Shown here piece after piece: positions 8,553 to 36,343 of a stretch of 64,000 nt of DNA. The DNA is taken from positions 158,007 to 222,006 of the forward strand of contig CAWCTA010000025.1 in the NCBI GenBank assembly GCA_963798315.1, read 5' to 3'. The stretch comes from an uncultured Acidobacteriota bacterium. GTDB taxonomy: Bacteria > Acidobacteriota > Terriglobia > Terriglobales > Acidobacteriaceae. The translations under genes and the position numbers were made by a program. Below the pieces are notes generated by a model. It was not told the DNA's origin. It did no database searches and was given only the letters and a program-made list of their open reading frames with translations. The first letter of the stretch is position 1. Every line of letters begins with the position of its first letter.

Positions 8553-9269
8553 TTAGATGCTGATTGATGCTTCCATAAAATCTTCAGAACGGGACGTCGC
8601 CCGACCCGAAAGCGCCATTAGGGTCCGCTCGACAATTCGCTGCGTAACTTCCTGCACTGTCATGGGAGCAATCACCGTGATGCCACCGATACGCCTTGCC
8701 AGGGTTAAATATGCCTGACGGTTCTCATGAATAAAATCGAGGGGATACTCGGGCTTGCGCGAGCGTGCCTGGAGGGGATCTGCATCCAGCAGGTAGCTGA
8801 TGTGGGGTTTGGGCACAAAGGCCACGAGCATCCGGATATAGGCTCGGACAATCGGATTCCGCAGATTAAGATTCGCCAACTCGTCCCAGGTATACCGATC
8901 GAAGATGACGACATCGGCGTCGGACCGGAGCGCCTTCTTTACCACTTGCCGCAACGAGACTGCATCCACGAAATAGAGAAAGAACCGGATGCATGTCATG
9001 GCTCCGGATCGCACATTCTTGTCGCGGCGGTTGATAGGCGCCGATGGGCTTCCGATTCCCTTGTCACCTTTGAAAATCGTGTGTCCCGAGGCTTCGCGGA
9101 TTCCTTTCAGGCGCGCCACATCATCCCAGAACCGGATCACCCGGACGCGCAGACCGTCCGTGGCGAGGCGCGTCAAAAGAGCCTCAATCTGCGTGCTCTT
9201 TCCGGCACCGTCGATACCAGAGAAACTCACCAGGAGAGTTCGATTGTTTTCTCTGCGTCCAGCCATCAC
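8553..9269 (-). CDS. Thymidylate-kinase-like P-loop kinase
   Basis: P-loop FSGIDGAGKSTQ and FDRY motif; the usual REPG motif is replaced by RFWDD. Confidence 0.8.
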   Translation of the reverse strand: MMAGRRENNRTLLVSFSGIDGAGKSTQIEALLTRLATDGLRVRVIRFWDDVARLKGIREASGHTIFKGDKGIGSPSAPINRRDKNVRSGAMTCIRFFLYFVDAVSLRQVVKKALRSDADVVIFDRYTWDELANLNLRNPIVRAYIRMLVAFVPKPHISYLLDADPLQARSRKPEYPLDFIHENRQAYLTLARRIGGITVIAPMTVQEVTQRIVERTLMALSGRATSRSEDFMEASISI

Positions 9270-9290
9270 GAGACTCCGGTTTGTCTCAAC

Positions 9291-9785
9291 TCATTGTGGG
9301 TGGCTTGAGCTGCCATGCGAGAGGGCAGCGACCGATCCGACAGCCACTCCCGCTGCTACGATCACGCCTACACTGATAAGAATGGTTCGCACGCGCCGCT
9401 GCTTCGCCGGTGCAATCGCCGCTCCCGCAGGCCGCGACGCGGCTATGCCCATCGTCTTTTCGTAGGGAGCCGCGGCCGTGCCAACCGGTTGCGCAGGTCC
9501 TTGCTGCTGTTGACTCGAACTGCTTTGCGAAGAGCCGTCTCGTACACCCTGGGGTTCAGCCTGCGGACTCGCCGGCTCTGGAGAATCCGGAAGCGCGTTC
9601 GTGGCGATGATCGAACCGGTGGCAGGCTCTCCGGGTGGCCCCTCTGGCGATGGAGCGTTTGACGCACTTTTTTTTGCAACCGCTTGCTGCGCTGCAGCCG
9701 TCCCAATCTCGCTGGAGGGGAACATCAGACACAGCACCAGGCAGGCAGCAACTTGTCTGAATACCCAGCTATTTAAGGATCTCAT
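9291..9785 (-). CDS. Hypothetical protein with signal peptide, low-complexity linker and C-terminal TM helix
   Basis: Hydrophobic N-terminus, Pro/Gln/Ser-rich middle, RTILISVGVIVAAGVAVG helix; GGAGG RBS upstream. Confidence 0.65.
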   Translation of the reverse strand: MRSLNSWVFRQVAACLVLCLMFPSSEIGTAAAQQAVAKKSASNAPSPEGPPGEPATGSIIATNALPDSPEPASPQAEPQGVRDGSSQSSSSQQQQGPAQPVGTAAAPYEKTMGIAASRPAGAAIAPAKQRRVRTILISVGVIVAAGVAVGSVAALSHGSSSHPQ

Positions 9786-9821
9786 CTTGTCCTCCAGATC
9801 CTGCGCGTTGGAATCGCTGCC

Positions 9822-10220
9822 TTAGGCCGCTGACTCGGACATCTGATCGGAATCGTGCGCTTCGCGCGCGTACGATTCCGGCTCGAAACGGGGTCTGAAG
9901 AAGCTGTTGACCGCTTCCGACTGCGTCTCGTAGATCTCGAACAGCCGATCGACCCGGGTCAGTTCCAGAATTTTTTCGATCGACGGCGGCACCGCGGCGA
10001 GCCTCACATCGCCATTGCGCTTCATTGCTTCTTCGAGGCAACACAGGAGCATATGAATCGCACGCTTATCCATCTCGCGAACCTTCGCATAATCGAGCAC
10101 GATACAGGGTCGCTCGATCTTGATGCGGCTCTGCAGATCTGCAAAGAAGAGTCGACCTTCCTTCATCTTTAATTTTTCTGGCAACTGGGCCACAGTTACT
10201 GTGCACGGTCGAATTCTCAT
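9822..10220 (-). CDS. STAS domain protein (anti-sigma-factor-antagonist-like)
   Basis: IVLDYAKVREMD...GDVRLAAVPPSIEKILELTRVDRLFEIYET matches the STAS C-terminal pattern. Confidence 0.8.
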   Translation of the reverse strand: MRIRPCTVTVAQLPEKLKMKEGRLFFADLQSRIKIERPCIVLDYAKVREMDKRAIHMLLCCLEEAMKRNGDVRLAAVPPSIEKILELTRVDRLFEIYETQSEAVNSFFRPRFEPESYAREAHDSDQMSESAA

Positions 10221-10349: not shown

Positions 10350-12317
10350 TTACCCGGGACTCTGAAAAAGACGTGCAAGCTCCGCTTCGGGATCACGAGC
10401 CGCGTGCGTCAAGACATTTCTTCCGTAGCGCATAAGCGTCATGAAATTGGTGTTGTACCAGCAGCACTCCGACATGCGAGGCGAGATTCCACACATGAAG
10501 CGGAGTTTGTGAAGTCGATGGGGCGATTCGAGCATCGCCGAAACCAGCCGATGATTTCCATCGAGAACAGTCATCGGTTCGGTTTCGTTGAGGCCAATGA
10601 GAACGACCGCGCCAGGTCCGGAATCCTTCTGGCGAAGCCGCTTGCGAATAGCAGCAATCTTGGACAGGAAAGCTTCGTCAACGGCGTGCTGACGGGTACG
10701 CATCCCCTGCAGGATCTCGGTCATGGAGAAATTGCCGCGCCCCAGCCTTCGCCATTGGGCGCGCGGAAAAACCCGTATCTGACCGAGATCAGCCTCCTCC
10801 ACTTCCACTTCGTACCATTCGGTGTCGGAGGGGATCTCTTTCCAGAGCGAACGGTGGCGAATGAAGAGCAGCGCGCGCCGTTTTGCATTCTCGTCAGGGT
10901 CATGAATATTCGGCTGGGCGACCATCTGAGCCAGGGACTGTTGGTAGTCTCGATACTCATGGCGATGGAATTCGCTCTTCAGGAACTCCGCAATCACTTC
11001 GTCCTCGGGGATTCGGCGGACCAGCCTGACCGGCCTGGATCCATCCGCGCGCAGCAGATCTTTGGGATCCGTAAGCGAATTGATGAGGAACGGCATCGCC
11101 ACGAGGATGAAGAGGAGGACCATCAATACAAGTTGCACCATCACTACATCCCGAAGCGACGAGTGAAACTCGCAGATGCCCGCGATCAATATCGCGCTGA
11201 AGGCCAGCTGCACCCAGCTCGTATTTGCAATCTTGTACGACATTTCGAAGGTGATGATGACGGCGCCCAGAGAGTAAATCACGGTGGCGATTGCATAGAA
11301 GGCCATCAGATACGCGATATTGTACTTGCCAAGAATCTCGAATCCGGTTCCAAACAACCGCGTCCAGATCCCCGCCGGAGCGATGAAGATAAACAACACG
11401 ATTCCCGCACCGGTGGCCAGCACCATCAGCAGCGAAGTGGCGATCACCGAGAGGTCTCTTCTTTCCTCTTCCCGGGTCCCCGCAACGAGCGGGAACGTGG
11501 AGTTTACCACCGCCTGCGAAAAGGTGAAGATCACACGGCCCACCATCGCCACGGCCGCATAGATGCCTGCCTCGCGCGACGGGAAGAAATGGTTGACGAG
11601 TATGATGCCGCAGTTATTGATGAGCAACTGGCCAGAGAAGAAGTTGAGGGCCTGCATCATCTCCCGGAATACGTAGGAGACGTGGAGAGGATTGGGAACC
11701 CGGGCAGCCAATCGCGGCGGAATCGTGATATAGGCGATCGCAATGGCGGCCGAATTCGCCACGATCACACCCCGTACCCCAAACCCCGCCAGAATCATCA
11801 GCAGGGACCCACCCAGCCGGACAGCTCCCTCAAGCACCAGGTTTGTGGCGAGACCGCGGAATCCGTAAGTGCCCTGAATAAAGCCGCGACGGCAGCCGAG
11901 AGGGACATAGACGGCCGCGCCGATAGCCAGAATTGCCACCAGATCGGAACCAGGAAGGTTCAAATAATTCGCAATCCCGCCTTGACATGCCAGGAGTGCG
12001 ATCCCGACCAGGATTCCGCATCCCCATGCCACACGGTGGAAGCCGCGATACACCGCGGCTTTCCCTTCCGGGGAGTCTTGTTGAGCCACTACTTTTGCGG
12101 AGACGATCTGGAACGAGAGTGTAATAGCGGAAATAAGAGTCAGAAGGGTATAGACGACGGTGGCATGCCCGAATCCGGCAGGGCCGAGAGACTGCGCAAT
12201 GACGACGTTGTAGACCATGTTGATCGCCGTCGCGAGGCCCGAGCCCGACAGCAATACGATGCTCCCGGAGACAATGCGGGCCTTCAGCGATCTAGTGTTT
12301 TGCGTCAGACTCTTCAC
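10350..12317 (-). CDS. Wzx/MATE-like oligosaccharide flippase fused to a C-terminal ParB/Srx-like soluble domain
   Basis: About 12 hydrophobic helices starting SGSIVLLSGSGLATAINMVYNVVIAQSLGPAGFG; soluble tail of ~220 aa with TVLDGNHRL. Confidence 0.8.
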   Translation of the reverse strand: MKSLTQNTRSLKARIVSGSIVLLSGSGLATAINMVYNVVIAQSLGPAGFGHATVVYTLLTLISAITLSFQIVSAKVVAQQDSPEGKAAVYRGFHRVAWGCGILVGIALLACQGGIANYLNLPGSDLVAILAIGAAVYVPLGCRRGFIQGTYGFRGLATNLVLEGAVRLGGSLLMILAGFGVRGVIVANSAAIAIAYITIPPRLAARVPNPLHVSYVFREMMQALNFFSGQLLINNCGIILVNHFFPSREAGIYAAVAMVGRVIFTFSQAVVNSTFPLVAGTREEERRDLSVIATSLLMVLATGAGIVLFIFIAPAGIWTRLFGTGFEILGKYNIAYLMAFYAIATVIYSLGAVIITFEMSYKIANTSWVQLAFSAILIAGICEFHSSLRDVVMVQLVLMVLLFILVAMPFLINSLTDPKDLLRADGSRPVRLVRRIPEDEVIAEFLKSEFHRHEYRDYQQSLAQMVAQPNIHDPDENAKRRALLFIRHRSLWKEIPSDTEWYEVEVEEADLGQIRVFPRAQWRRLGRGNFSMTEILQGMRTRQHAVDEAFLSKIAAIRKRLRQKDSGPGAVVLIGLNETEPMTVLDGNHRLVSAMLESPHRLHKLRFMCGISPRMSECCWYNTNFMTLMRYGRNVLTHAARDPEAELARLFQSPG

Positions 12318-12503: not shown

Positions 12504-13514
12504 ATGCTCAACCGTGTAAGCGCAGCTCTGTTCTCCGTCTTCTTCTTGTCCCATGGATGCTCCGGCCCGGGAACGAGCCATGCCATGCCGCTGAAATACA
12601 AGGCCACTGGGAGTTCTCCCCAGGTTCTCGCCCTCTACGAGGCCTGGTTCGGGCACCCCAAGCACATTGCGGTCGGCTACTCTTCCCAGGACCCTTCCGA
12701 AATCAGCACCCAGATACGCAAAGCAAAGGAATTGGGCGTTTCGGCATTCGTGGTGGACTGGTACGGAGACCGCGAGCCTTTCATCGACAAAAGCTACGCC
12801 CTGGTGCAGTCGACAGCCGCCAAGAAGAAATTTCAGGTGGCCATGATGTATGACGAAACCGACCAGGAAGATGGCGCAACGGACGAAGCCATCGCGGACT
12901 TCACCATGTTCCGCGACACGTATCTTTCGCCGAAGTCTCCGGGACATGAGGCTTATCTCACGTATCAGGGCCGGCCTGTGATCTTTATCTTCCCAAAGAG
13001 CGGGCATACCGACTGGGACAAAGTGCGTGCCTCGGTAAATAAATGGAGCACTCCTCCCTTCCTCATCTATGAAAATCTGCCCGGTCAGTATGTCAACGCG
13101 TTCGACGGCTACTATGCGTGGGTCAGCCCCGGAGACAAGGGCTGGGCCGCTGACGGAAGCAATTGGGGCGAACAGTATCTAAGCAACTTCTATCAGACGA
13201 TGCAGTCGAAATATTCCGACAAGATCATCGTCGGCGGAGCCTGGGCGAGCTTTGACGACAGCAAAGCTTCCTGGGGGCTCAATCGACATATTTCCGCGCG
13301 CTGCGGGCAGACGTTTACTGACACGTTCAACTTCTGGCGCAAGGACTTTCCGGCCGACGATCCGCCCCCCTTCGTCATGCTGGAAACTTGGAATGACCAC
13401 GAGGAAGGGACGGCAATCGAGGGAGGGATTCCGACTTGCGGCTCGCCGCAACCGGAACATACCGAGAAACAGTCGCTATCCTCCCCTGCTCCGGCAGGAC
13501 CGGGGAAATCCTGA
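12504..13514 (+). CDS. Exported GH99/GH71-like endo-glycoside hydrolase
   Basis: LALYEAWFG, GVSAFVVDWYG, YQGRPVIFIF, ETWNDHEEGTAIE; signal peptide ending ...SHGC (possible lipobox). Confidence 0.7.
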   Translation: MLNRVSAALFSVFFLSHGCSGPGTSHAMPLKYKATGSSPQVLALYEAWFGHPKHIAVGYSSQDPSEISTQIRKAKELGVSAFVVDWYGDREPFIDKSYALVQSTAAKKKFQVAMMYDETDQEDGATDEAIADFTMFRDTYLSPKSPGHEAYLTYQGRPVIFIFPKSGHTDWDKVRASVNKWSTPPFLIYENLPGQYVNAFDGYYAWVSPGDKGWAADGSNWGEQYLSNFYQTMQSKYSDKIIVGGAWASFDDSKASWGLNRHISARCGQTFTDTFNFWRKDFPADDPPPFVMLETWNDHEEGTAIEGGIPTCGSPQPEHTEKQSLSSPAPAGPGKS

Positions 13515-13533: not shown

Positions 13534-14517
13534 TTAAGCCGCTTCGGTGACCTCATCCTCAGCCCGCCGGTTGCCGCCATGCACGGCCACCATGCCCACC
13601 GCCAGGGCCGAGGAGTGTACCTGGCTGATGATTGAAAGCGGCCGGCTGCGTACTTCGTCGTAGATGCGCCCGACATACTCGCCCAGCACACCAAGGGAGA
13701 GCAGCATCAGGCCACCGACGAAGAACACCGCAGCGGCTATCCCCAGGGCCGCGGTCTGGATGGTGCCCCTGCTCAGAAACATCGAAAGCGCAAGAACTAC
13801 GGAGGCACAGGTCGTGAAGGAACACAAGGCAAAACTCAGCCGCAAGGGCTTATAGCTGAAGCTGGTAATCGCATCCATTGCGTACTTGATTCGGCTGATG
13901 AACGAAAGCTTGCCCTCGCCGGCGGCGCGATCCTGGCGATCGTAGTAAACGATTGCGTTCCGATAGCCCACCCACGCCCGGAGACCCGGCAGATAGCGGC
14001 CCCTTTCGCCCATGCTATTGACCGAATCGACAGCTTTGCGGTCCATCAGGCTGAATATCCCGGCATTGAGCGGTATTGGATAATCGGAGAGCGTGCCGAG
14101 AACACGATAAAACAGCGGAAACAGCTTGGCTAAGACCTTTCGCCGCTCCTGCCGGCTCCGTCTCACCGCAACGACCACTTCCGCGCCCTCGCGCCACGCC
14201 TCGATCAGCTGCGGCAGCACCTCGGGCGGATCCTGGAAGTCGCCGTCCATGAGAATGACCGCGCCGCCGCGAGCCGTCTGAAGTCCAGCGGAAACCGCTC
14301 CCATGTGCCCCCAGTTGCGGGACAATTCCACCACTACCACGTGTGGATCTTCGCTCTGTAATCCCTTGAGCAGATCCAGAGAAGAATCCGTGGACCCATC
14401 GTTGACGTACACAACTTCCCATTCACCGCCCGTGCTCTCCAAAGCGCTGGCAACAGCTTCATGAAAGCGCGACACAAGCTCTTCTTCGTTATAGATGGGG
14501 ACCACAACAGAGATCAT
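13534..14517 (-). CDS. GT2 polyprenol-phosphate glycosyltransferase (GtrB/ArnC/DPM1-like)
   Basis: MISVVVPIYNEE, VNDGSTD, SRNWGH, DGDFQDPP, two C-terminal TM helices; AGGAG RBS before ATG 14517. Confidence 0.9.
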   Translation of the reverse strand: MISVVVPIYNEEELVSRFHEAVASALESTGGEWEVVYVNDGSTDSSLDLLKGLQSEDPHVVVVELSRNWGHMGAVSAGLQTARGGAVILMDGDFQDPPEVLPQLIEAWREGAEVVVAVRRSRQERRKVLAKLFPLFYRVLGTLSDYPIPLNAGIFSLMDRKAVDSVNSMGERGRYLPGLRAWVGYRNAIVYYDRQDRAAGEGKLSFISRIKYAMDAITSFSYKPLRLSFALCSFTTCASVVLALSMFLSRGTIQTAALGIAAAVFFVGGLMLLSLGVLGEYVGRIYDEVRSRPLSIISQVHSSALAVGMVAVHGGNRRAEDEVTEAA

Positions 14518-14602
14518 TTTGTTATCTCCTGAATCCTTCTTTATTTCACTTTCCCGTTCTCGTGTCTTTGCCTTCTGGCAACCATGCAAAAGAAACGCCG
14601 CA

Positions 14603-15100
14603 TCATTCCGTCTGCGCCTGCAATACGCGCACTCTCCATCGCACCTCGGTTGGCGTAAGAACCACGATGTAGCGCGCGCGGACTTGCTGTGTCGTCTCGA
14701 CCTTATCGCGATTAAGCACCTGCACGACGTATTCGACATCGTCGATCAACTGGATGGAAAGGCCCTCCGGGGAGTAGAAGACAATTTGAAGGTCGTGCGA
14801 CTTATCCTGATAGCGCGTGTGAATTCCCGCCGCTGACTGCTGCTGGATGGCCTCCGCCATTTTGTCCCGGGCCGTACCAACAAAGTCGCGATCGAGCAGG
14901 TCAACCCGGTTCTGATCGAATGCAACGCCCATTGTCTGCCAGCCCTGCAGATAATCCCGGATGACCGCCGCCTGTGTTTGTTCCTGCAGAACTCGCGGGC
15001 CTTGCAGATGGACCGGCTCCACGCGCACGTCGGCTTGAGCTGTGCCTACTCCCGGCAAAGCAGCGACAACGGCGCAAAGAATGAGTATCGGCCTGACCAT
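14603..15100 (-). CDS. Secreted hypothetical protein (possible NTF2-like fold)
   Basis: Signal peptide MVRPILILCAVVAALPGVGTAQA; ATG follows the upstream stop closely (TAAGATG). Confidence 0.7.
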   Translation of the reverse strand: MVRPILILCAVVAALPGVGTAQADVRVEPVHLQGPRVLQEQTQAAVIRDYLQGWQTMGVAFDQNRVDLLDRDFVGTARDKMAEAIQQQSAAGIHTRYQDKSHDLQIVFYSPEGLSIQLIDDVEYVVQVLNRDKVETTQQVRARYIVVLTPTEVRWRVRVLQAQTE

Positions 15101-15101
15101 C

Positions 15102-15968
15102 TTACTTCTCCCAACGAATTTCGTTCCCCAACACAACACCGCTTGCGACGGAAATCCTTGCTCCCGGACGGATAGGCATCTTAACCTCGGCTATCCCGCG
15201 CTTGAGGGGTACATCGACCGTGGACTGAGCGCCTTCGTAGCTCTCGGTGAAAGTGACGATCGTTCCGTCCGGCACCGCGTTTCCGCTGCAGTCCCGCACC
15301 GGCTCGGTCTGAAGCTGAACCTGCTGACCGGCAGGATGGGCCGTCATCTTCAAAGTGCACGGATCGCCGGGCACCTGCCCGACAATTCTCGTACTTGAAA
15401 CGTCACCCACCCGTGCCACAAATCTGTCCACGCCTTGCTGCGCGGTCGAGTCCATCTCGGTCCATGCAGCACCATTTTTTGCTTCCACCGTGCGCTTTTG
15501 CGTCGCGCCTGCGGGACTTGAAAGCTCGAAGGACACGGAGGCGGGCGTGATGATCAGATTGTGATACGCGTCGAAGACGTATACAGCCCCGGTGATGCCG
15601 CTGTGCAGGCCCACGGGAAGACGCGAAGGCCGGGCAAGAAAGGTCAGATCGGCAGGCTGGGCCGGCACAACATCGAACGCACCGCTCTCAGCTGTTGCAG
15701 ATTCCCGCGCAAGAACGGTAACGTAATGCCCGGCACTGTACATCGATCCAGCGGGGAAGGAGATGGTTTCGCCCAATTGCACATCCCGCTTGAGCACCTG
15801 GCCGAGGCCAACGATGTAAAGGGTCGCCTTGCCGCTCCCCGTGCTTTGGATGGAGAAGGCCTTTCCTGCTTCAAGAGCCTTCGGCAGGGTCAGGGCCTCT
15901 TGCTGCGCAACCAGCCATTGCGCGCCTGCTGCCAGGGCCGCGATCAGAACCGCACATCGGGTCCTCAT
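15102..15968 (-). CDS. Secreted Ig-like (Big_1/invasin-like) domain protein
   Basis: Signal peptide; VRDCSGNAVPDGTIVTF resembles Big_1 strands; ATGA overlap with the upstream gene. Confidence 0.7.
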   Translation of the reverse strand: MRTRCAVLIAALAAGAQWLVAQQEALTLPKALEAGKAFSIQSTGSGKATLYIVGLGQVLKRDVQLGETISFPAGSMYSAGHYVTVLARESATAESGAFDVVPAQPADLTFLARPSRLPVGLHSGITGAVYVFDAYHNLIITPASVSFELSSPAGATQKRTVEAKNGAAWTEMDSTAQQGVDRFVARVGDVSSTRIVGQVPGDPCTLKMTAHPAGQQVQLQTEPVRDCSGNAVPDGTIVTFTESYEGAQSTVDVPLKRGIAEVKMPIRPGARISVASGVVLGNEIRWEK

Positions 15969-17095
15969 CGCGCACCGCCTGAACTATAAGTAGCAACCAC
16001 CGTGCGCTCGGTGCTGACACTTCGGGCAAGGTCCTGAGGAATGTGAATATTGAATGGAACGGGAGTCTGCGCCAGAAGGGCCTGGTCAACGTACTGGTCC
16101 GCCACCCACACTACCTGGCCGGTCTTGTCGTAGAAGGTTCCGAGCACATGCGCCACATTGACGATCTGCCCGCTCTGATTGGTCAGGCTCCCTGTCACCG
16201 ATGCATCCGGTGCAGGATTCAGGCGCTCGTCCTGGATCTCAATCACCGGGTCCGCGGATGCCGATATGAGGCTTGAGAAGGGCGTCATGCGTACGGAACC
16301 GACGTCGGCCAGCGAGAGATTGGGAAAGCTGATCAGAAAGGGCGTAACCTGCTTGGGCAAAAGCAGGTGAGAGATCTTGTCGAAGCTGCCCTCCGTCGCG
16401 ATTGGCGACTTGTCCTTCTTGGACAGCAATGTAGCAGTCACCGAGACGGCAGCGGGCACGACATCTTCGTTCAAAAGTTCTCCCAGGATCACTACGCCGT
16501 CGGCCCGTTCCACCGGGTGCATGTCGATGATCCGCACGTGCGGCGCTTCGACATCCTGCGCACCCCAGTCATCACCGGCCCCGCGATAGATCACGTCCCA
16601 ACGCAGATAATTCACGGGGATGACCTGGGGGGGCAAGACCGTCGCTTTCTCGAGCGGCCATTCCGCCGTCCAGGTGCTGCCAGTTTTCACTACATGCACA
16701 TCGCGGGTGGTGGGCAACGTACCAACGACAGTAGCCCAGTACAACTTCAGTTGAACCTCCGCCTCGTTGGAGGAAGAGTGAAGCGGCAGCACCTCAAACT
16801 TGTCCACGGTCGCGTACGTACGCAGGTTGGGGTAGTAACCCATCAGGTCGTACATGAATTGCTGCTGGGTAAATTGGGCCTTGTTGCCGAGACTGGCATA
16901 GGCTCGCTGCCAAGCTTGTTCCCGGATCTCCTCGCCCAGATTTCTCACCGCCGCTTCCGGTGTCGACGCCGATTGCAGGAAGCCTCCCGTACCGGCGTAC
17001 ACAGCAGCAGAATGGTAGGGCCACAGTGTCCCTATGACGACAAGCAGCACCGTCGAAGCGCCAAGAAGAACGGCAAGCATACGTCCCTTGGTCAC
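15965..17095 (-). CDS. Membrane-anchored periplasmic protein with two FxLYD-like beta-sandwich domains
   Basis: N-terminal anchor; GELLNED...VTATLL and GSLTNQS...LGTFYDKTG segments; ATGA overlap with the upstream gene. Confidence 0.7.
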   Translation of the reverse strand: MTKGRMLAVLLGASTVLLVVIGTLWPYHSAAVYAGTGGFLQSASTPEAAVRNLGEEIREQAWQRAYASLGNKAQFTQQQFMYDLMGYYPNLRTYATVDKFEVLPLHSSSNEAEVQLKLYWATVVGTLPTTRDVHVVKTGSTWTAEWPLEKATVLPPQVIPVNYLRWDVIYRGAGDDWGAQDVEAPHVRIIDMHPVERADGVVILGELLNEDVVPAAVSVTATLLSKKDKSPIATEGSFDKISHLLLPKQVTPFLISFPNLSLADVGSVRMTPFSSLISASADPVIEIQDERLNPAPDASVTGSLTNQSGQIVNVAHVLGTFYDKTGQVVWVADQYVDQALLAQTPVPFNIHIPQDLARSVSTERTVVATYSSGGAR

Positions 17096-28217: not shown

Positions 28218-29378
28218 ATGCCTGGGATGCCGATTAAATCGTTCGTAATCATTGTATTTGTAGCCTTGAGCCTGCAAAGCTCATGGAGTCGCGATCCTGT
28301 CAAGATCACCATCCCAAGGCGGACTCAGCTGACTCCCGTGCAGCGGCTGAATCGCGAAGGCGTGGACGCAGTCCGCAAACACGAATACGACAAGGCTGGA
28401 GCCCTTTTCTACAAGGCGTATCTCTACGATCCCACCGATCCCTTCACGCTCAACAACCTGGGATACGTCTCAGAACTGCAAGGTCAGTTGGAGCGGGCAC
28501 GCGCATTTTACGACCTGGCGGGGAAGCAAAGCTCCACTGCAAATATCGATCGCAGCAACGCCAAGGAACTGGAAGGCAAGCCGATGCGGGCGGCATTGGA
28601 CGATCTTCAGGATCTTCCCATGGAAGTCAATCGGATGAACATGAGTGCCATGCAGCTCCTGACGGAAAACCGGGGCTTTGAAGCCACGGCCATGTTGAGC
28701 AAGGCTCTAGCGACAGACCCGCATAACCCATTTACCCTCAATAACCTGGGGGTGGCTCACGAAGCCATTGGAGACTTCGATAGCGCCTTGAAATACTACG
28801 GCCAGTCGGCGGGCTTGAATTCTTCCGAGCCGGTCGTCGTCACGATGAGCGAAAGCTGGCGCGGACGGCCCGTGAGCAAAATGGCGGCCGAGAGCGCCAG
28901 GCGGCTGCAAAAACGGGTGCGCGACATGGATCCTGCCGAGGCCAAATCGGTCAAATTCACGATGCATGGAGTCTCCGCCGCCAATCAGAACGATTGGACC
29001 CAGGCACGGCAAGATTTTTTGAAGGCATACTCGCTGAACCCCCAAAGCGCCTTCGCCCTCAACAACCGCGGTTACGTTGCGGAGCGGGACGGCGACCTCG
29101 AGACGGCGCAGTTCTTCTATGAGAAGGCGCGTAAAGCGGACGACTCCCGCGCTCGCGTCGGACTGGCAACGCAACATTCTGCCGAGGGCCAGAACCTGGT
29201 CACCGTGGCAGCCGATAGCAATCAAAAGGTCGATTCGGCGCTCGATGAGTACAGCCGCCAGCGCCGCCGCGAGACGGGGCCCATCGAACTGACTCCGCGC
29301 GGCGGGACGGAGCCGTCCCCCGAAAAACAGCCGACGCCCAATGCTCCTCCGGCGGAACGGCCGTCCGTCCCCCAATAA
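28218..29378 (+). CDS. Secreted TPR-repeat protein
   Basis: Signal peptide; repeated DPFTLNNLGY / NPFTLNNLGV / SAFALNNRGY TPR motifs. Confidence 0.85.
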   Translation: MPGMPIKSFVIIVFVALSLQSSWSRDPVKITIPRRTQLTPVQRLNREGVDAVRKHEYDKAGALFYKAYLYDPTDPFTLNNLGYVSELQGQLERARAFYDLAGKQSSTANIDRSNAKELEGKPMRAALDDLQDLPMEVNRMNMSAMQLLTENRGFEATAMLSKALATDPHNPFTLNNLGVAHEAIGDFDSALKYYGQSAGLNSSEPVVVTMSESWRGRPVSKMAAESARRLQKRVRDMDPAEAKSVKFTMHGVSAANQNDWTQARQDFLKAYSLNPQSAFALNNRGYVAERDGDLETAQFFYEKARKADDSRARVGLATQHSAEGQNLVTVAADSNQKVDSALDEYSRQRRRETGPIELTPRGGTEPSPEKQPTPNAPPAERPSVPQ

Positions 29379-29406: not shown

Positions 29407-30507
29407 ATGACAATGACGGCCTCACAATCTACGACGGAAAGTTCGATGGCGCTCTTATCGCGCCTGCTCCTGCTTCCACCGCCGCAGAGAACGGCAGCCG
29501 GGCTCACGTCGGAAGTGCTCAGCGTCGCCAGAGATCAATTCGACGAGTTGGCCGCTCTCGCGAGTCTGAATCACGTGATCATCCGTGGCTTAGGGACGTT
29601 CCTTGAGATCGCGGAAAATGCAAAGGATGACACCCGCGCCGATTGGGCTCGAACGGCCCTGGCCGCCGAGCAGTCGCGCATCGACACAGCGATCAAGTCT
29701 CTGGATGAGATTTGTGCCGTTTTTCAAGAAGAAGGTCATGATGTTGCGGTGATCAAGTCGCTTGATCACTGGCCAGATCTGGGCAGCGATCTGGATCTCT
29801 ACACAAACGCAGATGCGGCAGAGATTCGTGGGCTGATGAAGCGTCGCTTCGACTCCCAGACCGCACCGCGCAGTTGGGGAGACCGCCTGGCGGGCAAGTG
29901 GAACTTCATGATTCCCGGGCTTTCCGAATTGGTCGAGATTCATATGGGCCGGCTCGGACAGACTGGAGAACAGGTAACCATTGCGTCGCGTCTTGCCAGG
30001 CGCACACGCATGATTCCGGTCGCCGGCTATGAGTTCAGGGTCCCGTCCGCCTCCGATCGAATCATGATCTCGACCTTGCAGCGCATGTACAGGCATTTCT
30101 ATTTCCGCTTGTGCGATGTCATCGACAGTGCCGGTCTGACAGATTCAGGCAGCCTCAATTTCGAAGATCTTCGCTCGTCGGCGATCGATGCCGGCATTTG
30201 GGAAGGTGTCGCCACCTACCTCGTGATTGTGTCCGACTACGTAAAGACCTATCGTGGATCGGGCGTCGATTTACCTCAGTTTGTCCGCGATACTGCGCGC
30301 TTCGGCGGGGCCGAAATCTACTTCAACAAGGACTTCTTGCGGATTCCGATTTTGCCCCAGTCCGCAAGGCTCTATGGAACGCAACTTGCCGGTCTGGTGC
30401 GAAAGCGCGAACTGCATAGCGGAGCTCGACTCAGCTTGCTGCCGTGGCTCGCCACAGCGGCTGTTGTGGGACAGAAAATCACCGGAAGCGACAAGGGAAT
30501 CTGGTAA
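29407..30507 (+). CDS. Pol-beta-superfamily nucleotidyltransferase (uncharacterised)
   Basis: VIKSLD...GSDLDLY motif (GS-DxD) and a downstream VEIH strand. Confidence 0.7.
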   Translation: MTMTASQSTTESSMALLSRLLLLPPPQRTAAGLTSEVLSVARDQFDELAALASLNHVIIRGLGTFLEIAENAKDDTRADWARTALAAEQSRIDTAIKSLDEICAVFQEEGHDVAVIKSLDHWPDLGSDLDLYTNADAAEIRGLMKRRFDSQTAPRSWGDRLAGKWNFMIPGLSELVEIHMGRLGQTGEQVTIASRLARRTRMIPVAGYEFRVPSASDRIMISTLQRMYRHFYFRLCDVIDSAGLTDSGSLNFEDLRSSAIDAGIWEGVATYLVIVSDYVKTYRGSGVDLPQFVRDTARFGGAEIYFNKDFLRIPILPQSARLYGTQLAGLVRKRELHSGARLSLLPWLATAAVVGQKITGSDKGIW

Positions 30508-30628
30508 CAAACACATAGCTCGGACACTGCAAGTACAAATAACCGGGCAGCGCTTCACACCAATTTGGAATCCAAACTCCGGTCAAACCAAGAGGAGATG
30601 CCGGGACTCTGACCACCCGGATCATGCT

Positions 30629-31657
30629 ATGGCCAATCTGTTACCGAGAAATAAACCGATCTCCCGCGGCAGGTTATTTGCCAGCAATTCAGGCGACCCG
30701 GAGCAGGAGGCGGATGTTTACAACCGATCCTCGCTGGCTCTCGATCCTGAATCTTCTGCTCCCCATAAGCACACCGGTTCCCATGTGGTGGAATGGCCGC
30801 ATCCTGTCGCAGCCGCGGCCCCCGAGGGCGCGATCTGGAAAGGCCTCGATCCGTTTGAGGTCAAGCGGTCAAAGGCCTCCAGTGTTATTTCGTTCATCCT
30901 GCATGCAGTCATAATTGGCGCCGTGCTGTATCTCGGGTTGAGCGTTCGAGTGGTTATACCGGCCGCAGCAAAGGTAACCGCTGTCGATTTCAAGCTGTAT
31001 GCACCTCCACCTCCACCCAAGATCTTGGCGGTCGCACCCGTGCAAGGAGGAGGAGGAGGAGGCGGAGCACACCAGATTGTTGAGCCCACCAAGGGACGTC
31101 CGCCGGAGGTGAGAAAGCTGCCGCCGGTGCTGGCGCCGCAGATCCTCAGGATCGATCGGCCCAAGATGGCTGCCGAGCCTTCGATGCAGCTCAAAATGCC
31201 CGACAGCACCAATCTTCCCAACCTTGGCATGGCAGAGTCGCCGCAGATCGCGCTGGCTTCGCAGGGTAAGGGCGCTGGCTCAGGATTCGGCGCAGGTCTA
31301 GGTGGCGGTATCGGCGCCGGGCATGGACTTGGTGCCGGAACCGGCAGCGGCGGAGGGTATGGAGGCGGCGTAATGAGCGTCGGCGGCGGCGTCAGCGCTC
31401 CAGTCGTCGTTCATTCCGTTGATCCGGAGTTTACTGCCGAAGCTCGTACAGCGAACTTTCAGGGCAGCGTCTCCATTCAGCTCATCGTCGATAGCCAGGG
31501 CAATCCGCAGAATGTCCGCGTGGTTCGGCATCTGGGCATGGGGCTGGATGAAAAGGCAATCGAAGCCGTGAGGCAATACCGGTTCAGGCCCGCGATGTAC
31601 GAAGGCCATCCGGTTGCCGTCCAGTTATTGATCGATGTGGATTTCCACCTGCATTGA
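30629..31657 (+). CDS. TonB family energy transducer
   Basis: Single TM helix (SSVISFILHAVIIG), Pro-rich and Gly-rich linker, TonB_C domain (GSVSIQLIVDSQG...GLDEKAIEAVRQYRFRPA...G.PV). Confidence 0.88.
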   Translation: MANLLPRNKPISRGRLFASNSGDPEQEADVYNRSSLALDPESSAPHKHTGSHVVEWPHPVAAAAPEGAIWKGLDPFEVKRSKASSVISFILHAVIIGAVLYLGLSVRVVIPAAAKVTAVDFKLYAPPPPPKILAVAPVQGGGGGGGAHQIVEPTKGRPPEVRKLPPVLAPQILRIDRPKMAAEPSMQLKMPDSTNLPNLGMAESPQIALASQGKGAGSGFGAGLGGGIGAGHGLGAGTGSGGGYGGGVMSVGGGVSAPVVVHSVDPEFTAEARTANFQGSVSIQLIVDSQGNPQNVRVVRHLGMGLDEKAIEAVRQYRFRPAMYEGHPVAVQLLIDVDFHLH

Positions 31658-31794: not shown

Positions 31795-33027
31795 CTATGG
31801 CGTGACTTCCTGCGCGGTTTGCGTTGGCTGGGCCGGCGGGCGTTTGGCGAAGTAACCCTTGCGGGTGCGCACGATCAGCCTGCCATGGCGCGGCGCTTTC
31901 ACTTCCACATGGATGGTCCGGTAACCCTCAATACTGGATGGCTTGCCGGAGTGGTAACCCACGACATACTGGTTGCGGATGTCGCGCGCAACCTCCCGGG
32001 CGATCGTGTCGACGTCACCCAGCGATTGAGGGAAATAGGCAACGCCGCCGGTCTCGGCGGAGAGCATGTCGAGCGCGCTTCTCGCCCGCTGTGCTTCGAC
32101 CGGCTCTGCATCGAACAGCAGGCCGATCGAGTACACCACCGGCCCTCCCAGGTGCTGCACCCGGCGAATGGCCTGTTCAAGGCTCAACCGGGAGGCGTTG
32201 TCCGCACCATCGCTGATAATCAGCAACGCCTGCTTCGGCTCCTTCGCGTGCTTCGATAACTCATCGGCCGAGGCTGCAACCGCGTCATACACGGCCGTGG
32301 TTCCCTGCGAATCGAAGTGCGCCAGACCGCGATCGAGCAGGGCGATGTCCGAAGTAAACCCCTGGTCGAGAAATGCCCGGTCGGAGAAATTTACGATGAA
32401 TGCCGCATCCTTTGGGTTGGACGATCTCAGCAGATCCAACGCGGCCGAATTGACCACGCTGCGCTTGTCGCGCATGGAACCCGAATTATCGACGACGATT
32501 CCCAGTGATACGGGAAGGTCCTGGTGCTGAAAGGAGTTGGTGGCCTGAGGAGCCCCGTCTTCCCACACTCGAAAGTCCTGTTGTTTCAGATCCATCACCG
32601 GCTTGCCGTTTTCGTCGATGACCGTACAGTTCAGCAAAACTTCATCTACATCCTGGTGCAGGGTGTAGATACCGTTCTGCCCCTTCTTCAGGGCTCCGGG
32701 GCGCTCATTCGGAACCGGGGCGGCAGGGTTGATCGCTACATTGTCGTCGGGATCCGGCGAGAGGATCGGATCGTGGTCCAGGCTCAGATTTGGCTGCGCT
32801 TCGGGACGCGTCGGATCGTATTGCTGGACCTGGGCCCCGGCGCTGGCAGGAACCGAATTCGTTTGCGAGCGGGACGCGGGCTGGGCTTGCCCACCACCAT
32901 TGGCCGGCGTTTGAGCAAACGACATGGTCCCAATGCTGCCCAGTGCGATGGCAACCGCCAGAGGCGCCGACAAGTGAGCGCGCAGCAGAGAAATCCTTGA
33001 AAATATAGGCACACGAATCCGTTCCAT
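31795..33027 (-). CDS. VWA domain protein (acidobacterial VWFA type)
   Basis: EVLLNCTVID, DFRVWEDG, MIDAS VDNSGS, GTTAVYDA, LLIISDGADNAS, ETGG, IRNQYVVGY, VRTRKGYF. Confidence 0.9.
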   Translation of the reverse strand: MERIRVPIFSRISLLRAHLSAPLAVAIALGSIGTMSFAQTPANGGGQAQPASRSQTNSVPASAGAQVQQYDPTRPEAQPNLSLDHDPILSPDPDDNVAINPAAPVPNERPGALKKGQNGIYTLHQDVDEVLLNCTVIDENGKPVMDLKQQDFRVWEDGAPQATNSFQHQDLPVSLGIVVDNSGSMRDKRSVVNSAALDLLRSSNPKDAAFIVNFSDRAFLDQGFTSDIALLDRGLAHFDSQGTTAVYDAVAASADELSKHAKEPKQALLIISDGADNASRLSLEQAIRRVQHLGGPVVYSIGLLFDAEPVEAQRARSALDMLSAETGGVAYFPQSLGDVDTIAREVARDIRNQYVVGYHSGKPSSIEGYRTIHVEVKAPRHGRLIVRTRKGYFAKRPPAQPTQTAQEVTP

Positions 33028-33201: not shown

Positions 33202-33206
33202 GCTAA

Positions 33207-34124
33207 TCATGCCCGACCAGCGCGAAGAGTGATTTTTGTGATCTCCGGCGGACAGTCGAATCGGAATGGAACGCCCACCGTCCCGATTCCGCGGTTCACG
33301 TAAAGCTGCATGGATCCTACCCGGAACCAGCCCTGGACGAATTTCCGGCCGCCCGGAGGCAGATCCAGGGCACCCACAAACGGCAGGCGAACCTGGCCGC
33401 CATGGGTATGCCCGCTCAGCATCAGACCAACCGACTTGCCGGACGGATGAGCAGCCAGTTGATCCGCATAATCGGGCGCGTGGCACATGACGATGACCGG
33501 CTCATCCGCCACATCGCGAATGGACGGCGGAATGGCGGCGTCGGGGTCGGGCCGTCCACAAACCGGATCATCGAGCCCGGCCAGCCAGATCCGGCTGCTT
33601 CCCCGCTCCAGGGGCAGATAGGAATTGTTGAGCACCGTGATGCCATTCGCCGTCAGCGCCTCCGTCACCAGCTTTTCGCCGAGCATGACGTCGTGATTGC
33701 CCATGATGGCATAGCGTTGCGTGCATTTGAGTTCGTTCAGAATTTCGGCGCACTGCCAGGCGGATTTGGTCGCAAACTTTCGGGGGGCAATCTGATAAGT
33801 GACATAGTCCCCGGTCAGGAAGACTGCATCCGGCTGAATGCGGTTGATCTCCTCGATCGAATGACGCAACAGGAACGGCTCAGTGAATTCGTCGAGGTGG
33901 ATATCGCTGAGTTGCGCGATTCGCATCCCGTCGAAGACCCCAGGCAGCGACTGGAGATGAATTTCGAGCGGCTTGACCTCGATCCAATGGCGCTCGATCT
34001 CTCCTGAATAGAGAGCCAGGCCGGCGCCCCCGCACAGTCCTGTCGTGAGGAAGCGGCGCCGGCTCATGGGTTGGAGTTGGATGGAGTCGGGGGACGGCTG
34101 GGACTCACTCGTTTTTAGATTCAA
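33207..34124 (-). CDS. Metallophosphoesterase (YkuE-like, calcineurin-like)
   Basis: QLSDIH, LTGDYV, MGNHD, MCHAPD, LSGHTHGGQV, YVNRGIG; SRRRFL Tat-like motif. Start is TTG 34124 or ATG 34067. Confidence 0.9.
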   Translation of the reverse strand: MNLKTSESQPSPDSIQLQPMSRRRFLTTGLCGGAGLALYSGEIERHWIEVKPLEIHLQSLPGVFDGMRIAQLSDIHLDEFTEPFLLRHSIEEINRIQPDAVFLTGDYVTYQIAPRKFATKSAWQCAEILNELKCTQRYAIMGNHDVMLGEKLVTEALTANGITVLNNSYLPLERGSSRIWLAGLDDPVCGRPDPDAAIPPSIRDVADEPVIVMCHAPDYADQLAAHPSGKSVGLMLSGHTHGGQVRLPFVGALDLPPGGRKFVQGWFRVGSMQLYVNRGIGTVGVPFRFDCPPEITKITLRAGRA

Positions 34125-34189
34125 ACTTCTTCTGCTCCTGCAGGGTAGGTAATGAAAGGTAGGTAACCTGCTGCATAAAAATGCGCCGA

Positions 34190-36343
34190 CTAGGGACCCA
34201 TACTGGCGGGAGTGCATGGATTGTATCCGAGCGAGGTCGGGTTGACCGGCGTGGGCGGCGTGGGCGGCGTAGCCCACGGAGTTTTCGCGAAGTCAAAGAA
34301 CTCCAGCAGGTTCGATTGCGCCGCGTCGCGCGCCGTGAGATGCGTCGAACTGCCGATAAACCGGTTTTCGACAAACTTGATCACCGCCGTGTGATCGATG
34401 GGCGTATGCGACACATAATGGCGCCGTGTGAAAGGCGAGATGACGATGTTCGGTATACGGAAGCCGAGTTGCGCGGCAAAGCCATAAACAGCCGCCGCAT
34501 CGGTGCTCTTGGTGCCAGGATAGGGGACAACAAGATCGCAATGTATCGTCTTCACCCCCCCGGCTGGGAGACACGGATTGTAGGCATCCGGATTCACAGC
34601 GATCGCGGAGATATCCGGGATCGCGCCCAGCGCGGAGTCCGTGTTCTGGTTGGAGTGGCCGGGCACCGGCGGGACGTGATCGTAGGGTCCGCCGCCCTCG
34701 TCATATGCGAGGAAGAAGACAGAGTTTTTCCATGAAGAACTGGTCATAAACGCGCCCACAACGCTCGCGACTTCTGTCTGCCCGTTCAGGACGGAATTTC
34801 CTGAGCCCGGATGTTCATCGTTCACGCCCGATCCGGATTCGATGAACGAGAAGCTGGGAAGAGTGCCGTTCTTGAGATCGGTGAAGTATTGGGAGAGCGG
34901 AGCAATGTGGTTCGGATCGACGCAGAAGGAATTCGTCGTGTCGCCCACCACGCTGGACGGCTTGGTGGTTCCGGTACAGGCGGCTTTGGATGAATTCAGG
35001 TAGATGTACCGAAATGAATAACTCAGGCTCGAAAAAGTGGTATCGGGATAGTTCCCGTATGGGTTGGTCGTGGCGCAGGGACTGGAAGCGAGGCAAAGAT
35101 CGTCGGTGACGGTGTAGTACACCTTCCACGTCACGTTCGCCGTATCCAGTTCCTGGAAGATGTTGGGGATGTTGAGTTGGGGCAGGTGGTCGTTGCTGCC
35201 CGGATCAGCGATGAGACCCTGGGTGGTTCCCCCGGTGAAAGTGGCGATGCGATTGGGCACGCTCTTGCTCGAGACGGGGGAGAACCAGCGATCGGACACG
35301 GCGAATTGCGAGGCCATGTAATAGTAATAATTGAGAAAATCCTGATCGTAGTAGCCCATGGCGCGCTCGCCGGTTGTATCGGTGTAGCTTCCGCCACAAG
35401 TGCCGGAATTGAGACAATTGGTCGAGTAACCTTCCGCCGTGTGGACGAAGCCGTCCATGCGGATGGGGCGTGTGGTGGAGAGATCCCAGCGACTGACATC
35501 GCCATAGCTCTCGTACCATCCAGAGGTCGCGTCGTCGATGCAGGTCGACCTCAATTTGAAGATCGGATACGTCGTGCCCTGATCGTCCTGGTTGCTGATC
35601 GTGTTCAGCTTGTCATCAATTCCGTCGACTTCGTAGTCCTTGCCGTCCTGGCCGATATTCCACCCCTTGACCTTGCGATAGGGATTCAGCATTCCGAAGT
35701 AGTTATCGAATGAGTGGTTCTCCTGGAGCATGAAGATGACGTGACTGATGGCATTCACGCTTCCCGCAGGTATGACGTCGACGGTGCTGGTTTCCGAGGC
35801 GCTCCCGCCCGTGCCGCTCACTTCGGCGGTGTAGGTGGTGGTTGCGGTCGGAGTCACGGTCTGCGTTCCGCCGGTCGCGGCAAGGTGATACGTGGTCCCA
35901 TCGGAGCCGGCGATTGTCACCTGGGTTGAATTGGCGGCAGTGACGGTCAACGTGGACGAACTGCCGGCCTGGACCGTGGGCGGATTAGATGTAATGCTGA
36001 CGGTCGGCGCCGGCGGATTTCCCACGGTTATATTAATGGTCGAGGTCGTGGCGCCGCCGCAATAGTCCCATTCCTCGACAACCGTGTGCTCCGGGCCATT
36101 ATTCATCGTGATATAGGTGTTGAGTACTGTGCCTTTTACCACGGATCCAGTAATCAGAACGTTGTTGACGTAGATCCCCATGGTGGCAACGCCCTTGGCA
36201 CAGGTGGTGGCGGTTGCAGTGGCCACGTAATGCACCGGCGAAGGTACCAGCGCGCCGGGAGTCGGGCTCGTAACCGTGACGGTGGCAAAAGCGGGCATAG
36301 CCCATGCCGCGATGGGAAAGAGAATGTGGGGGAAGACCTTCAT
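34190..36343 (-). CDS. Secreted PLC/AcpA-type phosphoesterase, paralogue of 24963-27140, with N-terminal Ig-like domain and one Thr-rich repeat
   Basis: Signal peptide MKVFPHILFPIAAWAMPAFA; QENHSFDNYFG, DEHPG, YDEGGGPYDHVPP, GFRIPNIVISPF. Confidence 0.85.
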   Translation of the reverse strand: MKVFPHILFPIAAWAMPAFATVTVTSPTPGALVPSPVHYVATATATTCAKGVATMGIYVNNVLITGSVVKGTVLNTYITMNNGPEHTVVEEWDYCGGATTSTINITVGNPPAPTVSITSNPPTVQAGSSSTLTVTAANSTQVTIAGSDGTTYHLAATGGTQTVTPTATTTYTAEVSGTGGSASETSTVDVIPAGSVNAISHVIFMLQENHSFDNYFGMLNPYRKVKGWNIGQDGKDYEVDGIDDKLNTISNQDDQGTTYPIFKLRSTCIDDATSGWYESYGDVSRWDLSTTRPIRMDGFVHTAEGYSTNCLNSGTCGGSYTDTTGERAMGYYDQDFLNYYYYMASQFAVSDRWFSPVSSKSVPNRIATFTGGTTQGLIADPGSNDHLPQLNIPNIFQELDTANVTWKVYYTVTDDLCLASSPCATTNPYGNYPDTTFSSLSYSFRYIYLNSSKAACTGTTKPSSVVGDTTNSFCVDPNHIAPLSQYFTDLKNGTLPSFSFIESGSGVNDEHPGSGNSVLNGQTEVASVVGAFMTSSSWKNSVFFLAYDEGGGPYDHVPPVPGHSNQNTDSALGAIPDISAIAVNPDAYNPCLPAGGVKTIHCDLVVPYPGTKSTDAAAVYGFAAQLGFRIPNIVISPFTRRHYVSHTPIDHTAVIKFVENRFIGSSTHLTARDAAQSNLLEFFDFAKTPWATPPTPPTPVNPTSLGYNPCTPASMGP

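Follow-up and report, generated by a model that had tools for sequence, protein, structure and literature searches.

A kinase, a nucleotidyltransferase and a ParB/Srx-flippase are co-inherited with an accessory glycan locus of Acidobacteriaceae that may carry out a phosphate-linked step

We analyzed a 64,000-nucleotide stretch of DNA (the window) from an uncultured bacterium of the Acidobacteriaceae (contig CAWCTA010000025.1, positions 158,007 to 222,006), in which an earlier note had listed six phosphate-handling genes and read them as a pathway that phosphorylates a small molecule, activates it with a nucleotide and attaches it to, or removes it from, a glycan. Window positions 7433-33027 form an accessory locus for an envelope glycan in the Acidobacteriaceae (order Terriglobales) and consist of two co-inherited blocks. 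Block A comprises a Wzx-like flippase that bears a ParB/Srx-like domain on its cytoplasmic side, together with a STAS protein, a small membrane protein and the thymidylate-kinase-fold kinase; its neighbours encode GT2, GT-C and GT4 proteins, a giant TPR protein and a GH99-like hydrolase. Block B contains a PF04185 lipoprotein, a DUF5666 protein, a TPR protein, a PF14907-type nucleotidyltransferase, a TonB_C protein and a VWA protein. Pfam and NCBIfam scans of the open reading frames (ORFs) at 4.8-40 kb of the window, the ORF listing and structure models located all six listed genes at or near the places where the note had put them. The six do not form one unit; the kinase, the nucleotidyltransferase, the ParB/Srx-Wzx protein and the first PF04185 enzyme lie within the conserved locus and quite probably make up its functional set, whereas the remaining two (33207-36394) fall beyond its limits.

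Co-inheritance was assessed in 201 Acidobacteriaceae genomes from 142 genera; two unpublished genomes (G619 and G480) are both carriers, and dropping them lowers each count by two. The kinase was matched in 97 genomes, the nucleotidyltransferase in 108 and Wzx with the ParB-like domain in 100. All three genes occurred together in 96/201 genomes and none of them in 93/201; of the 12 mixed genomes, five are 59-83% complete assemblies and seven carry the transferase alone. Within the genus of the window, kinase and flippase-ParB genes occur in the same 12 of 37 genomes and are always 1-2 kb apart, and the transferase is found in 11 of these 12 carriers and in one fragmentary genome (G002). The transferase lies 17-25 kb from the flippase in all seven congeners (other genomes of the window's genus) that have both on one contig. 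Species pairs in at least six genera (g236, g238, g239, g240, g246 and g251) were discordant, with the three genes in one species and none found in the other; these pairs are separate gain or loss events. The kinase, nucleotidyltransferase and ParB/Srx-flippase were gained and lost together. Gene-by-gene comparison showed that the block from 7433 to approximately 33027 is conserved in eight congeners at 55-93% protein identity. Other genera keep the locus with rearrangements, with gene order conserved at 40-60% protein identity.

The order of action proposed earlier, a kinase followed by a nucleotidyltransferase, gained support from five remote relatives of the nucleotidyltransferase whose gene context was inspected (P0204, P0262, P0236, P0214 and P0178). 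P0204 (29% identical) and P0262 (25% identical) each have an overlapping Thymidylate_kin-like gene directly 5' in a Wzx/GT4 operon, and P0236 is a 564-aa fusion of a Thymidylate_kin part with a PF14907 part. P0214 belongs to a GT4 locus on an 8-kb contig without a kinase, and the 2.3-kb contig of P0178 is uninformative. The larger contigs are Wzx/GT4/aminosugar operons, and the distant kinases have the P-loop and D-R-Y motifs in common with the window kinase. The same kinase-transferase pair was found beside phosphoenolpyruvate mutase in a survey of phosphonate loci (PMC8942020). A search of species-representative genomes with P0204 found no relative. These results showed that the window kinase and nucleotidyltransferase represent, in unlinked form, a cassette whose two genes are translationally coupled or fused in polysaccharide operons of distant bacteria; overlap and fusion of the pair elsewhere fit consecutive steps. 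As a separate observation, a soluble protein of approximately 520 aa is encoded directly upstream of distant kinase-transferase pairs (L045:7789-9363 and L048:8472-10004). It has no Pfam match and carries an H-G-D-x-x-x-x-N...D-W-E signature typical of aminoglycoside/choline-kinase-fold enzymes; neither the window nor its genome encodes a homologue of the 524-aa form.

The kinase gene (8553-9269, minus strand) matched PF02223 at 44.3 bits (gathering cut-off 27) and scored 41.9 bits against TIGR00041, half of the equivalog cut-off of 83.25. The true Tmk of the same genome is encoded elsewhere (G000:C18:8894-9514; TIGR00041 165.3 bits), ruling out a housekeeping Tmk, and the Tmk-type motifs rule out a bacterial tyrosine kinase (BY-kinase). 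The gene at 8553-9269 is a Tmk paralogue and not the cell's thymidine monophosphate (dTMP) kinase. Its model (predicted local distance difference test score (pLDDT) 82.6) matched thymidylate kinases in Foldseek at E 1e-9 with TM scores of 0.6-0.74; its match to APS_kinase had an E of 0.22. Across 23 sequences, the motifs G-x-D-G-x-G-K, D-R-Y and R171-K172 were invariant or nearly so, with G18, D20, G21, G23, K24, D124, R125, R171 and K172 as the invariant residues. That is, the kinase retains the P-loop (G-x-D-G-x-G-K-S/T), the D-R-Y motif, the basic LID residues and the overall fold of Tmk (PDB 5x8a, 3hjn). In contrast with Tmk, the segment that binds dTMP there appears to be replaced by a family-specific conserved stretch, F-W-D-D-V-A...R-R-D-K-N-V, in a region that models poorly (pLDDT <50 at residues 66-82), and the distribution of the kinase tracks the accessory glycan locus. 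The small membrane protein (9291-9785, minus strand), which has a signal-like N-terminus, a low-complexity Ser/Pro/Gln region and a conserved C-terminal hydrophobic helix, is always encoded between the kinase and the STAS gene (9822-10220, minus strand; PF01740, 38.4 bits). The STAS protein reads M-D-K-R-A-I at the usual D-S-S-G position and lacks a phosphorylatable serine. The trio remained intact even where it had moved off the flippase (G248 and G459).

The nucleotidyltransferase (29407-30507, plus strand) scored 23.3 bits against PF14907, under the gathering cut-off of 31.2, whereas a 41% identical paralogue in G238 scored 36.4 bits, and P0204, P0262 and P0214, relatives of 25-29% identity, have precomputed PF14907 matches. 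We assign it to PF14907 by transitivity only. The G-S...D-x-D core (KSLDHWPDLGSDLDLY) was kept in 19 relatives; G126-S, D128 and D130 were invariant or nearly so, and E188 was invariant in relatives down to 23% identity. Judged from its residues, the protein is a predicted pol-beta-fold enzyme, with the G-[SG]...D-x-D core and a third carboxylate. Neither a signal peptide nor a strong hydrophobic segment is present; the protein ends in a conserved hydrophobic tail, which may indicate membrane association. A sequence search of the PDB gave no match, and the family is small: of 1.84 billion representatives, 611 were relatives at E ≤ 1e-3.

The Wzx-like (MOP) flippase (10350-12317, minus strand; Polysacc_synt 24.1 bits, under the cut-off) ends in a 226-aa domain (10350-11030, minus strand) for which Pfam at E up to 10 and a PDB sequence search yielded nothing usable. 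The AlphaFold model of this domain (pLDDT 86.7) gave nothing in Foldseek at E ≤ 1e-3 (best E 0.8). In a VIA search of 48,161 chains, the nine best structural matches were all of the ParB/Srx fold, at Z 3.4-5.3, and included sulfiredoxin (Z 5.3; root-mean-square deviation 2.9 Å over 88 residues), ParB-N, Atu1540, SerK, KorB, SbnI and PadC. Because the Z values are low, we regard the ParB/Srx fold of the modeled domain as probable and not as certain. In the motif T-x-x-(D/E)-G-N-H-R, T154, G158, N159, H160 and R161 were invariant across 14 sequences down to 29% identity. The GNHR residues sit at the junction of strand 153-157 and helix 159-168 in the AlphaFold model, and the domain carries a G-x-x-R-type nucleotide-phosphate-binding motif after a beta-strand. 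Presumably, (D/E)-G-N-H-R occupies the nucleotide-phosphate-binding site that is formed by G-G-C-H-R in sulfiredoxin and by G-x-R-R in ParB. The domain differs from its best structural matches sulfiredoxin, SerK and SbnI (PDB 6ky4, 5x0b, 5ujd) in being fused to or encoded beside a MOP flippase; it has an Asn where sulfiredoxin has the catalytic Cys and, compared with ParB/Srx proteins, extra helices on both sides and no Pfam ParBc match.

Wzx and the ParB-like domain were fused in approximately two thirds of the 100 carriers and were two adjacent genes in approximately 35. In the split form, a Wzx of approximately 440 aa is followed by an ORF of 250-350 aa (e.g., G588:C1:173174-175068). The separate ParB-like gene directly follows Wzx, which confirms that the domain is a module of its own that accompanies the flippase, and this natural series of split and fused forms could be used to test the domain alone. 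Two species of one genus have, in a second locus, a stand-alone ParB/Srx-like paralogue approximately 1 kb away from a PF04185 gene (L053:9887-12883 in G596 and L054:7301-10445 in G466). In three congeners, the flippase-ParB gene contains in-frame stops, four in G031:C2:387131-388959 and one each in G028:C1:1662752-1664704 and G011:C23:25654-27588, which may reflect decay of the locus in some lineages or assembly errors.

The earlier claim of two alkaline-phosphatase-superfamily phosphoesterases and a third phosphoesterase was borne out, as two PF04185 enzymes and a calcineurin-like enzyme. The first PF04185 enzyme (24963-27140, plus strand; PLC/AcpA family, 208 bits) is a lipoprotein with the lipobox L-T-G-C and two Ig-like repeats; the second (34190-36394, minus strand; 208 bits) is secreted and has a signal peptide. 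Both retain the PF04185 domain and the PLC/AcpA motifs QENHTFDNYFG, S-V-D-N-R, Y-D-E-G-G-G-P-Y-D-H and G-F-R-I-P, which align to PLC/AcpA chains (PDB 9gye, 8k3g). Scores stayed far below the cut-offs of TIGR03396 (phosphocholine-specific phospholipase C; 151.7 versus 580.25 bits) and TIGR03397 (Burkholderia-type acid phosphatase; 75.1 versus 362.75 bits). The roles of the metal-site and nucleophile residues are taken from the AcpA structure. The window enzyme resembles PlcH/PlcN and AcpA (PDB 9gye, 2d1g) in its full-length domain, metal-site/nucleophile motifs and export, and differs from them as a lipoprotein with two Ig-like repeats whose relatives carry fn3, TIG or CBM_4_9 domains.

The first PF04185 gene lies inside the locus in six of eight congeners. 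The locus of G027 has only a 33%-identical PF04185 at that position, and a more distant PF04185 occurs in rearranged loci of three other genera. Counts of 10-kb neighbourhoods were based on the 51 nucleotidyltransferase loci with full flanks, and 38 of them (75%) had a PF04185 gene no more than 10 kb from the transferase. In the family, PF04185 was in the locus in at least 30/201 genomes, where chance would give approximately 2 in 100 (1-2 copies per 5 Mb). The linkage of PF04185 to a glycan locus suggests a glycan-borne phosphodiester and not a phospholipid. In addition, a second exopolysaccharide (EPS) operon of G238 encodes four PF04185 enzymes, one of them 1503 aa long, that carry fused fn3, TIG or CBM_4_9 modules, and these fusions suggest that the PF04185 substrate is a carbohydrate polymer. 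The same operon (L038 and L039; G238:C1:4236000-4270999) is of the classical Wzx/Wzy kind and encodes Bac_transf, PF14907, Wzx, Wzy_C, GT4 and two GT2 proteins, a 410-aa P-loop protein, WecG/TagA, GH10 and a deacetylase. Relatives of the PF04185 lipoprotein (G030, G001, G005 and G563) vary in the number of N-terminal Ig-like repeats, with open frames of up to 1240 aa, and one congener has them at no fewer than six loci, as the result of an expansion.

The two remaining phosphoesterases were rejected as members of the system. The second PF04185 protein is an inverted paralogue of the first (67% identical) and was found at this position only in the window's genome (G000) and in a 93%-identical relative (G005); it is a lineage-specific paralogue. 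The two genes share 74-76% nucleotide identity over 335 and 207 nt and bracket the DUF5666-TPR-transferase-TonB-VWA block. The metallophosphoesterase (33207-34277, minus strand) scored above the cut-off of Metallophos, and its scores fell below those of the NCBIfam equivalogs YaeI (137.8 versus 188 bits) and LpxG (116.1 versus 350 bits), indicating a family-level YaeI/LpxG relative only. A twin-arginine-type signal at residue 71 marks its probable true start; the ORF is probably over-extended at its 5' end, as matches and orthologues start near residue 60-70, and it shares 88 nt with the end of the PF04185 gene. This gene was found in 21/36 congeners irrespective of the locus, in most carriers elsewhere in the genome, and in 23/24 sister-family genomes (unpublished among the latter: G041, G046, G047, G048, G050, G052 and G055), and it lay within 10 kb of the transferase in only 2/51 loci. 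Thus, the co-occurrence that the earlier note had set as its check held for the kinase, the transferase, ParB/Srx-Wzx and the first PF04185 gene, and failed for the metallophosphoesterase and the second PF04185 gene.

The four genes are co-inherited with the glycan locus in approximately half of the genomes and, therefore, probably perform a phosphate-linked step on the polymer. The best explanation, which we hold with a confidence that falls just short of even, is that the co-inherited set builds a phosphate-linked step in the glycan and that PF04185 trims the product after export. Somewhat more tentatively, we propose that the glycan itself receives a phosphate-linked group. In this reading, the kinase and nucleotidyltransferase would act sequentially at the cytoplasmic face of the membrane near the flippase, on a lipid-linked glycan precursor or a small donor. 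The kinase would add a phosphate, which the nucleotidyltransferase-fold enzyme would extend to a phosphodiester that bears a nucleotide or a sugar. The flippase-tethered ParB/Srx domain would provide a further NTP-binding or phosphotransfer function. The exported PF04185 lipoprotein would most likely cleave or trim a phosphodiester in the product and would be unlikely to install one. Cleavage, trimming or release is the more plausible role because the enzyme is exported, lacks a membrane domain and is remote from a nucleotide-activated donor. The metallophosphoesterase and the second PF04185 copy would have no part in this scheme.

A precedent for the two central steps exists in the pseudomycoidin lasso-peptide cluster of Bacillus pseudomycoides, where PsmN adds a hexose only after the kinase PsmK has installed a phosphate (PMC6993621). 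The two systems are alike in that a kinase and an enzyme of an "uncharacterised nucleotidyltransferase" family are encoded together, in the D-x-D metal site and in the phosphodiester-type decoration. However, PsmK is HprK-like, whereas the window kinase has the thymidylate kinase fold, and the PsmK/PsmN substrate is a peptide serine, whereas the window genes lie in a flippase/glycan locus. The systems to which the earlier note had compared the locus fit less well. LtaS, EptA and BcsG, the Lic phosphocholine pathway and the O-methyl phosphoramidate (MeOPN) pathway of Campylobacter share with it the general scheme in which a surface glycan is phospho-decorated with the help of a kinase and a nucleotidyltransferase, and the first three also share the alkaline phosphatase superfamily with PF04185. 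Their defining families (PF00884 with a membrane domain; LicA, LicC and LicD; Cj1415-1418 types) were not found in the region. Transfer by an alkaline-phosphatase-type enzyme in the manner of LtaS, EptA, BcsG or OpgB does not fit the PF04185 proteins, which have only a lipobox or a signal peptide, lack an N-terminal membrane domain and would act in the wrong compartment for a nucleotide-activated donor; no ORF at 4.8-40 kb matched PF00884. Known periplasmic transferases of this type take lipid donors and not nucleotide-activated ones. For the Lic and MeOPN analogies, the Pfam and NCBIfam scans of the same ORFs revealed no LicA choline kinase, LicC cytidylyltransferase or LicD, and none of the MeOPN set (glutamine kinase, phosphoglutamine cytidylyltransferase, gamma-glutamyl hydrolase and CysC-like 3'-kinase).

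Several points weigh against a phosphate-linked step. The ORFs at 4.8-40 kb yielded neither a gene that would make a substituent precursor nor any of the known cytoplasmic phosphotransferases (LicD, TagF, Stealth or PF00884). The locus contains no initiating phosphoglycosyltransferase, Wzy or Wzc and, therefore, the nature of "the glycan" is uncertain. The acceptor-side segment of the kinase (residues 52-88) has no Tmk-like motif and a low pLDDT. In five complete genomes of the family, the nucleotidyltransferase lies >250 kb from the flippase, and kinship among the sampled genomes means that they are not independent samples. The locus of G023 has no PF04185 gene. Moreover, PF04185 is multi-copy with or without the locus, with 1-29 matches in 10/10 genomes tested, and its linkage therefore rests on position and not on presence. 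A PLC1-like PF04185 subfamily was matched in 84/201 genomes, 80 of them locus carriers; we downgraded this figure because only seven candidates were scored per genome and PF04185 is present in all genomes tested. We found no report in the literature of phosphate in acidobacterial EPS. The membership of PsmN in PF14907 is presumed.

We considered whether the same genes could instead form a regulatory nucleotide switch, in which the ParB/Srx domain (compare the CTP switch of ParB), the STAS protein and the P-loop protein act post-translationally as a gate on the flippase or on export, the nucleotidyltransferase makes or removes a nucleotide signal and the polymer carries no phosphate. The invariable STAS-small membrane protein-kinase trio beside the flippase, the ParB/Srx domain tethered to or encoded beside the transporter, and the lack of a phospho-group transferase among the ORFs at 4.8-40 kb would all agree with such a switch. 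The STAS protein, without its phospho-serine, resembles binding-type STAS proteins; therefore, regulation remains the main rival. However, the distant overlapping or fused cassettes lie in polysaccharide operons with no STAS or ParB-like gene nearby, the catalytic motifs of the kinase and transferase are fully conserved, and a switch gives no role to linked PF04185 enzymes with carbohydrate-binding modules. We consider it unlikely.

Supply of a precursor is a second alternative, in which the kinase and nucleotidyltransferase make or recycle an unusual nucleotide-activated sugar for GT4 or GT2 and the polymer is an ordinary glycosidic one. We rate this as quite improbable. The cassette is always found among glycosyltransferases, and the 524-aa protein with the aminoglycoside/choline-kinase-like signature upstream of the distant pairs recalls pairs of an anomeric kinase and a nucleotidylyltransferase; yet thymidylate-kinase-fold enzymes phosphorylate phosphate groups and not sugar hydroxyls, and the known sugar-1-phosphate nucleotidylyltransferases are of a different fold (PF00483/PF12804) with no representative at the locus. 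Precursor supply also leaves the flippase tether, the hydrophobic C-terminal tail of the transferase and the PF04185 link unexplained.

The PsmK/PsmN precedent allows for a protein or peptide substrate, where the kinase phosphorylates a serine of a locus protein, the transferase decorates that phosphate, and GT2 and GT-C also act on proteins. PgfS of a protein-glycosylation system is the best family match of the GT2 protein, and three conserved exported proteins are encoded between the GT2 and GT-C genes. Against this, the kinase and transferase lack signal peptides although their conserved partners are exported, the usual serine is missing from the cytoplasmic STAS protein, and the cassette elsewhere belongs to classical Wzx/Wzy sugar operons. 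We regard modification of a protein as very unlikely. A chance assembly of six unrelated neighbours, with phosphate-scavenging phosphoesterases and stray nucleotide enzymes near a glycan locus, holds for two of the six (the widespread, unlinked metallophosphoesterase and the lineage-specific second PF04185 paralogue) and can point to the multi-copy PF04185 and to promoter and terminator scans without an operon signal above shuffled controls, but it is largely refuted for the kinase, transferase, ParB/Srx-Wzx and first PF04185 genes by the 96/93/12 split, by gene order conserved across genera, by overlap or fusion of the pair elsewhere and by the 75% of full-flank loci with PF04185 nearby, which leaves it scarcely credible for the set as a whole. 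The promoter and terminator site counts, being at the level of shuffled sequence, are themselves uninformative on operons.

The links of the ParB/Srx domain and PF04185 to the kinase-transferase cassette are what this analysis adds; we found nothing relevant in the literature on this gene combination in Acidobacteria. Returning to a phosphate-linked step, a bolder version of it, which we regard as doubtful, would have the flippase-tethered ParB/Srx enzyme, the kinase and the PF14907 enzyme form an undescribed "phosphoglycosylation" route on a lipid-linked glycan just before flipping, with PF04185 proteins bearing Ig or carbohydrate-binding modules as dedicated extracytoplasmic phosphodiesterases. 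If true, this route would be the first function for the kinase-transferase cassette of polysaccharide loci. Acidobacteriaceae rank with the most abundant bacteria of soils, and the polymers on their surface influence both soil aggregation and survival; the glycan locus is carried by about half of the sampled genomes of this family. Solving its chemistry would give a function to PF14907 and to many genes mislabelled "thymidylate kinase", would show the role of a ParB/Srx domain on a flippase, and might reveal phosphate-linked decorations of soil exopolysaccharides. The comparative data provide clean targets for mutants and exclude two genes from that effort.

The other genes of the locus were assigned as context. 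An exported protein without a Pfam or NCBIfam match (7433-8503, minus strand) is the last gene in the transcription direction of wzx, STAS and kinase, and adjoins the kinase in 7/8 congeners. Beside the flippase lie a syntenic exported GH99-like glycoside hydrolase (12504-13514, plus strand; PF16317, 26.9 bits, under the cut-off) and a GT2 protein of the polyprenyl-phosphate-sugar-synthase type (13534-14739, minus strand; PF00535, 114 bits), which resembles PgfS and ArnC. Genes for three exported proteins (14603-15139, 15102-15968 and 15965-17095, minus strand) and a GT-C-like membrane protein (17092-18843, minus strand) are tightly packed, and the order of these four is kept in 12 genomes of five genera. 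A 1405-aa protein with many TPR family matches (19151-23368, plus strand) is syntenic and is followed by a GT4 glycosyltransferase (23376-24830, plus strand; PF13692 and PF00534), found within 10 kb of the nucleotidyltransferase in 31/51 loci. In block B, the exported DUF5666 repeat protein (27159-28046, minus strand; PF18914) was within 10 kb in 51/51 loci, and the exported TPR protein (28218-29378, plus strand), encoded 28 nt upstream of the nucleotidyltransferase, was present in 80/80 nucleotidyltransferase loci. The TonB_C-domain membrane protein (30254-31657, plus strand; PF03544, 62 bits; true start probably downstream of 30507) and the acidobacterial VWA-domain protein (31795-33027, minus strand; TIGR03436, 209 bits) were within 10 kb in 31/51 and 40/51 loci, respectively. 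Beyond the two excluded phosphoesterases, the ORF listing and family scans placed DnaE from 36537 (minus strand). The sub-block DUF5666-TPR-transferase-TonB-VWA is inverted in two congeners (loci L007/L008 of G009 and L013/L014 of G031). The longest ORF of the GT2 gene is probably over-extended at its 5' end, as family matches and orthologues start near residue 74.

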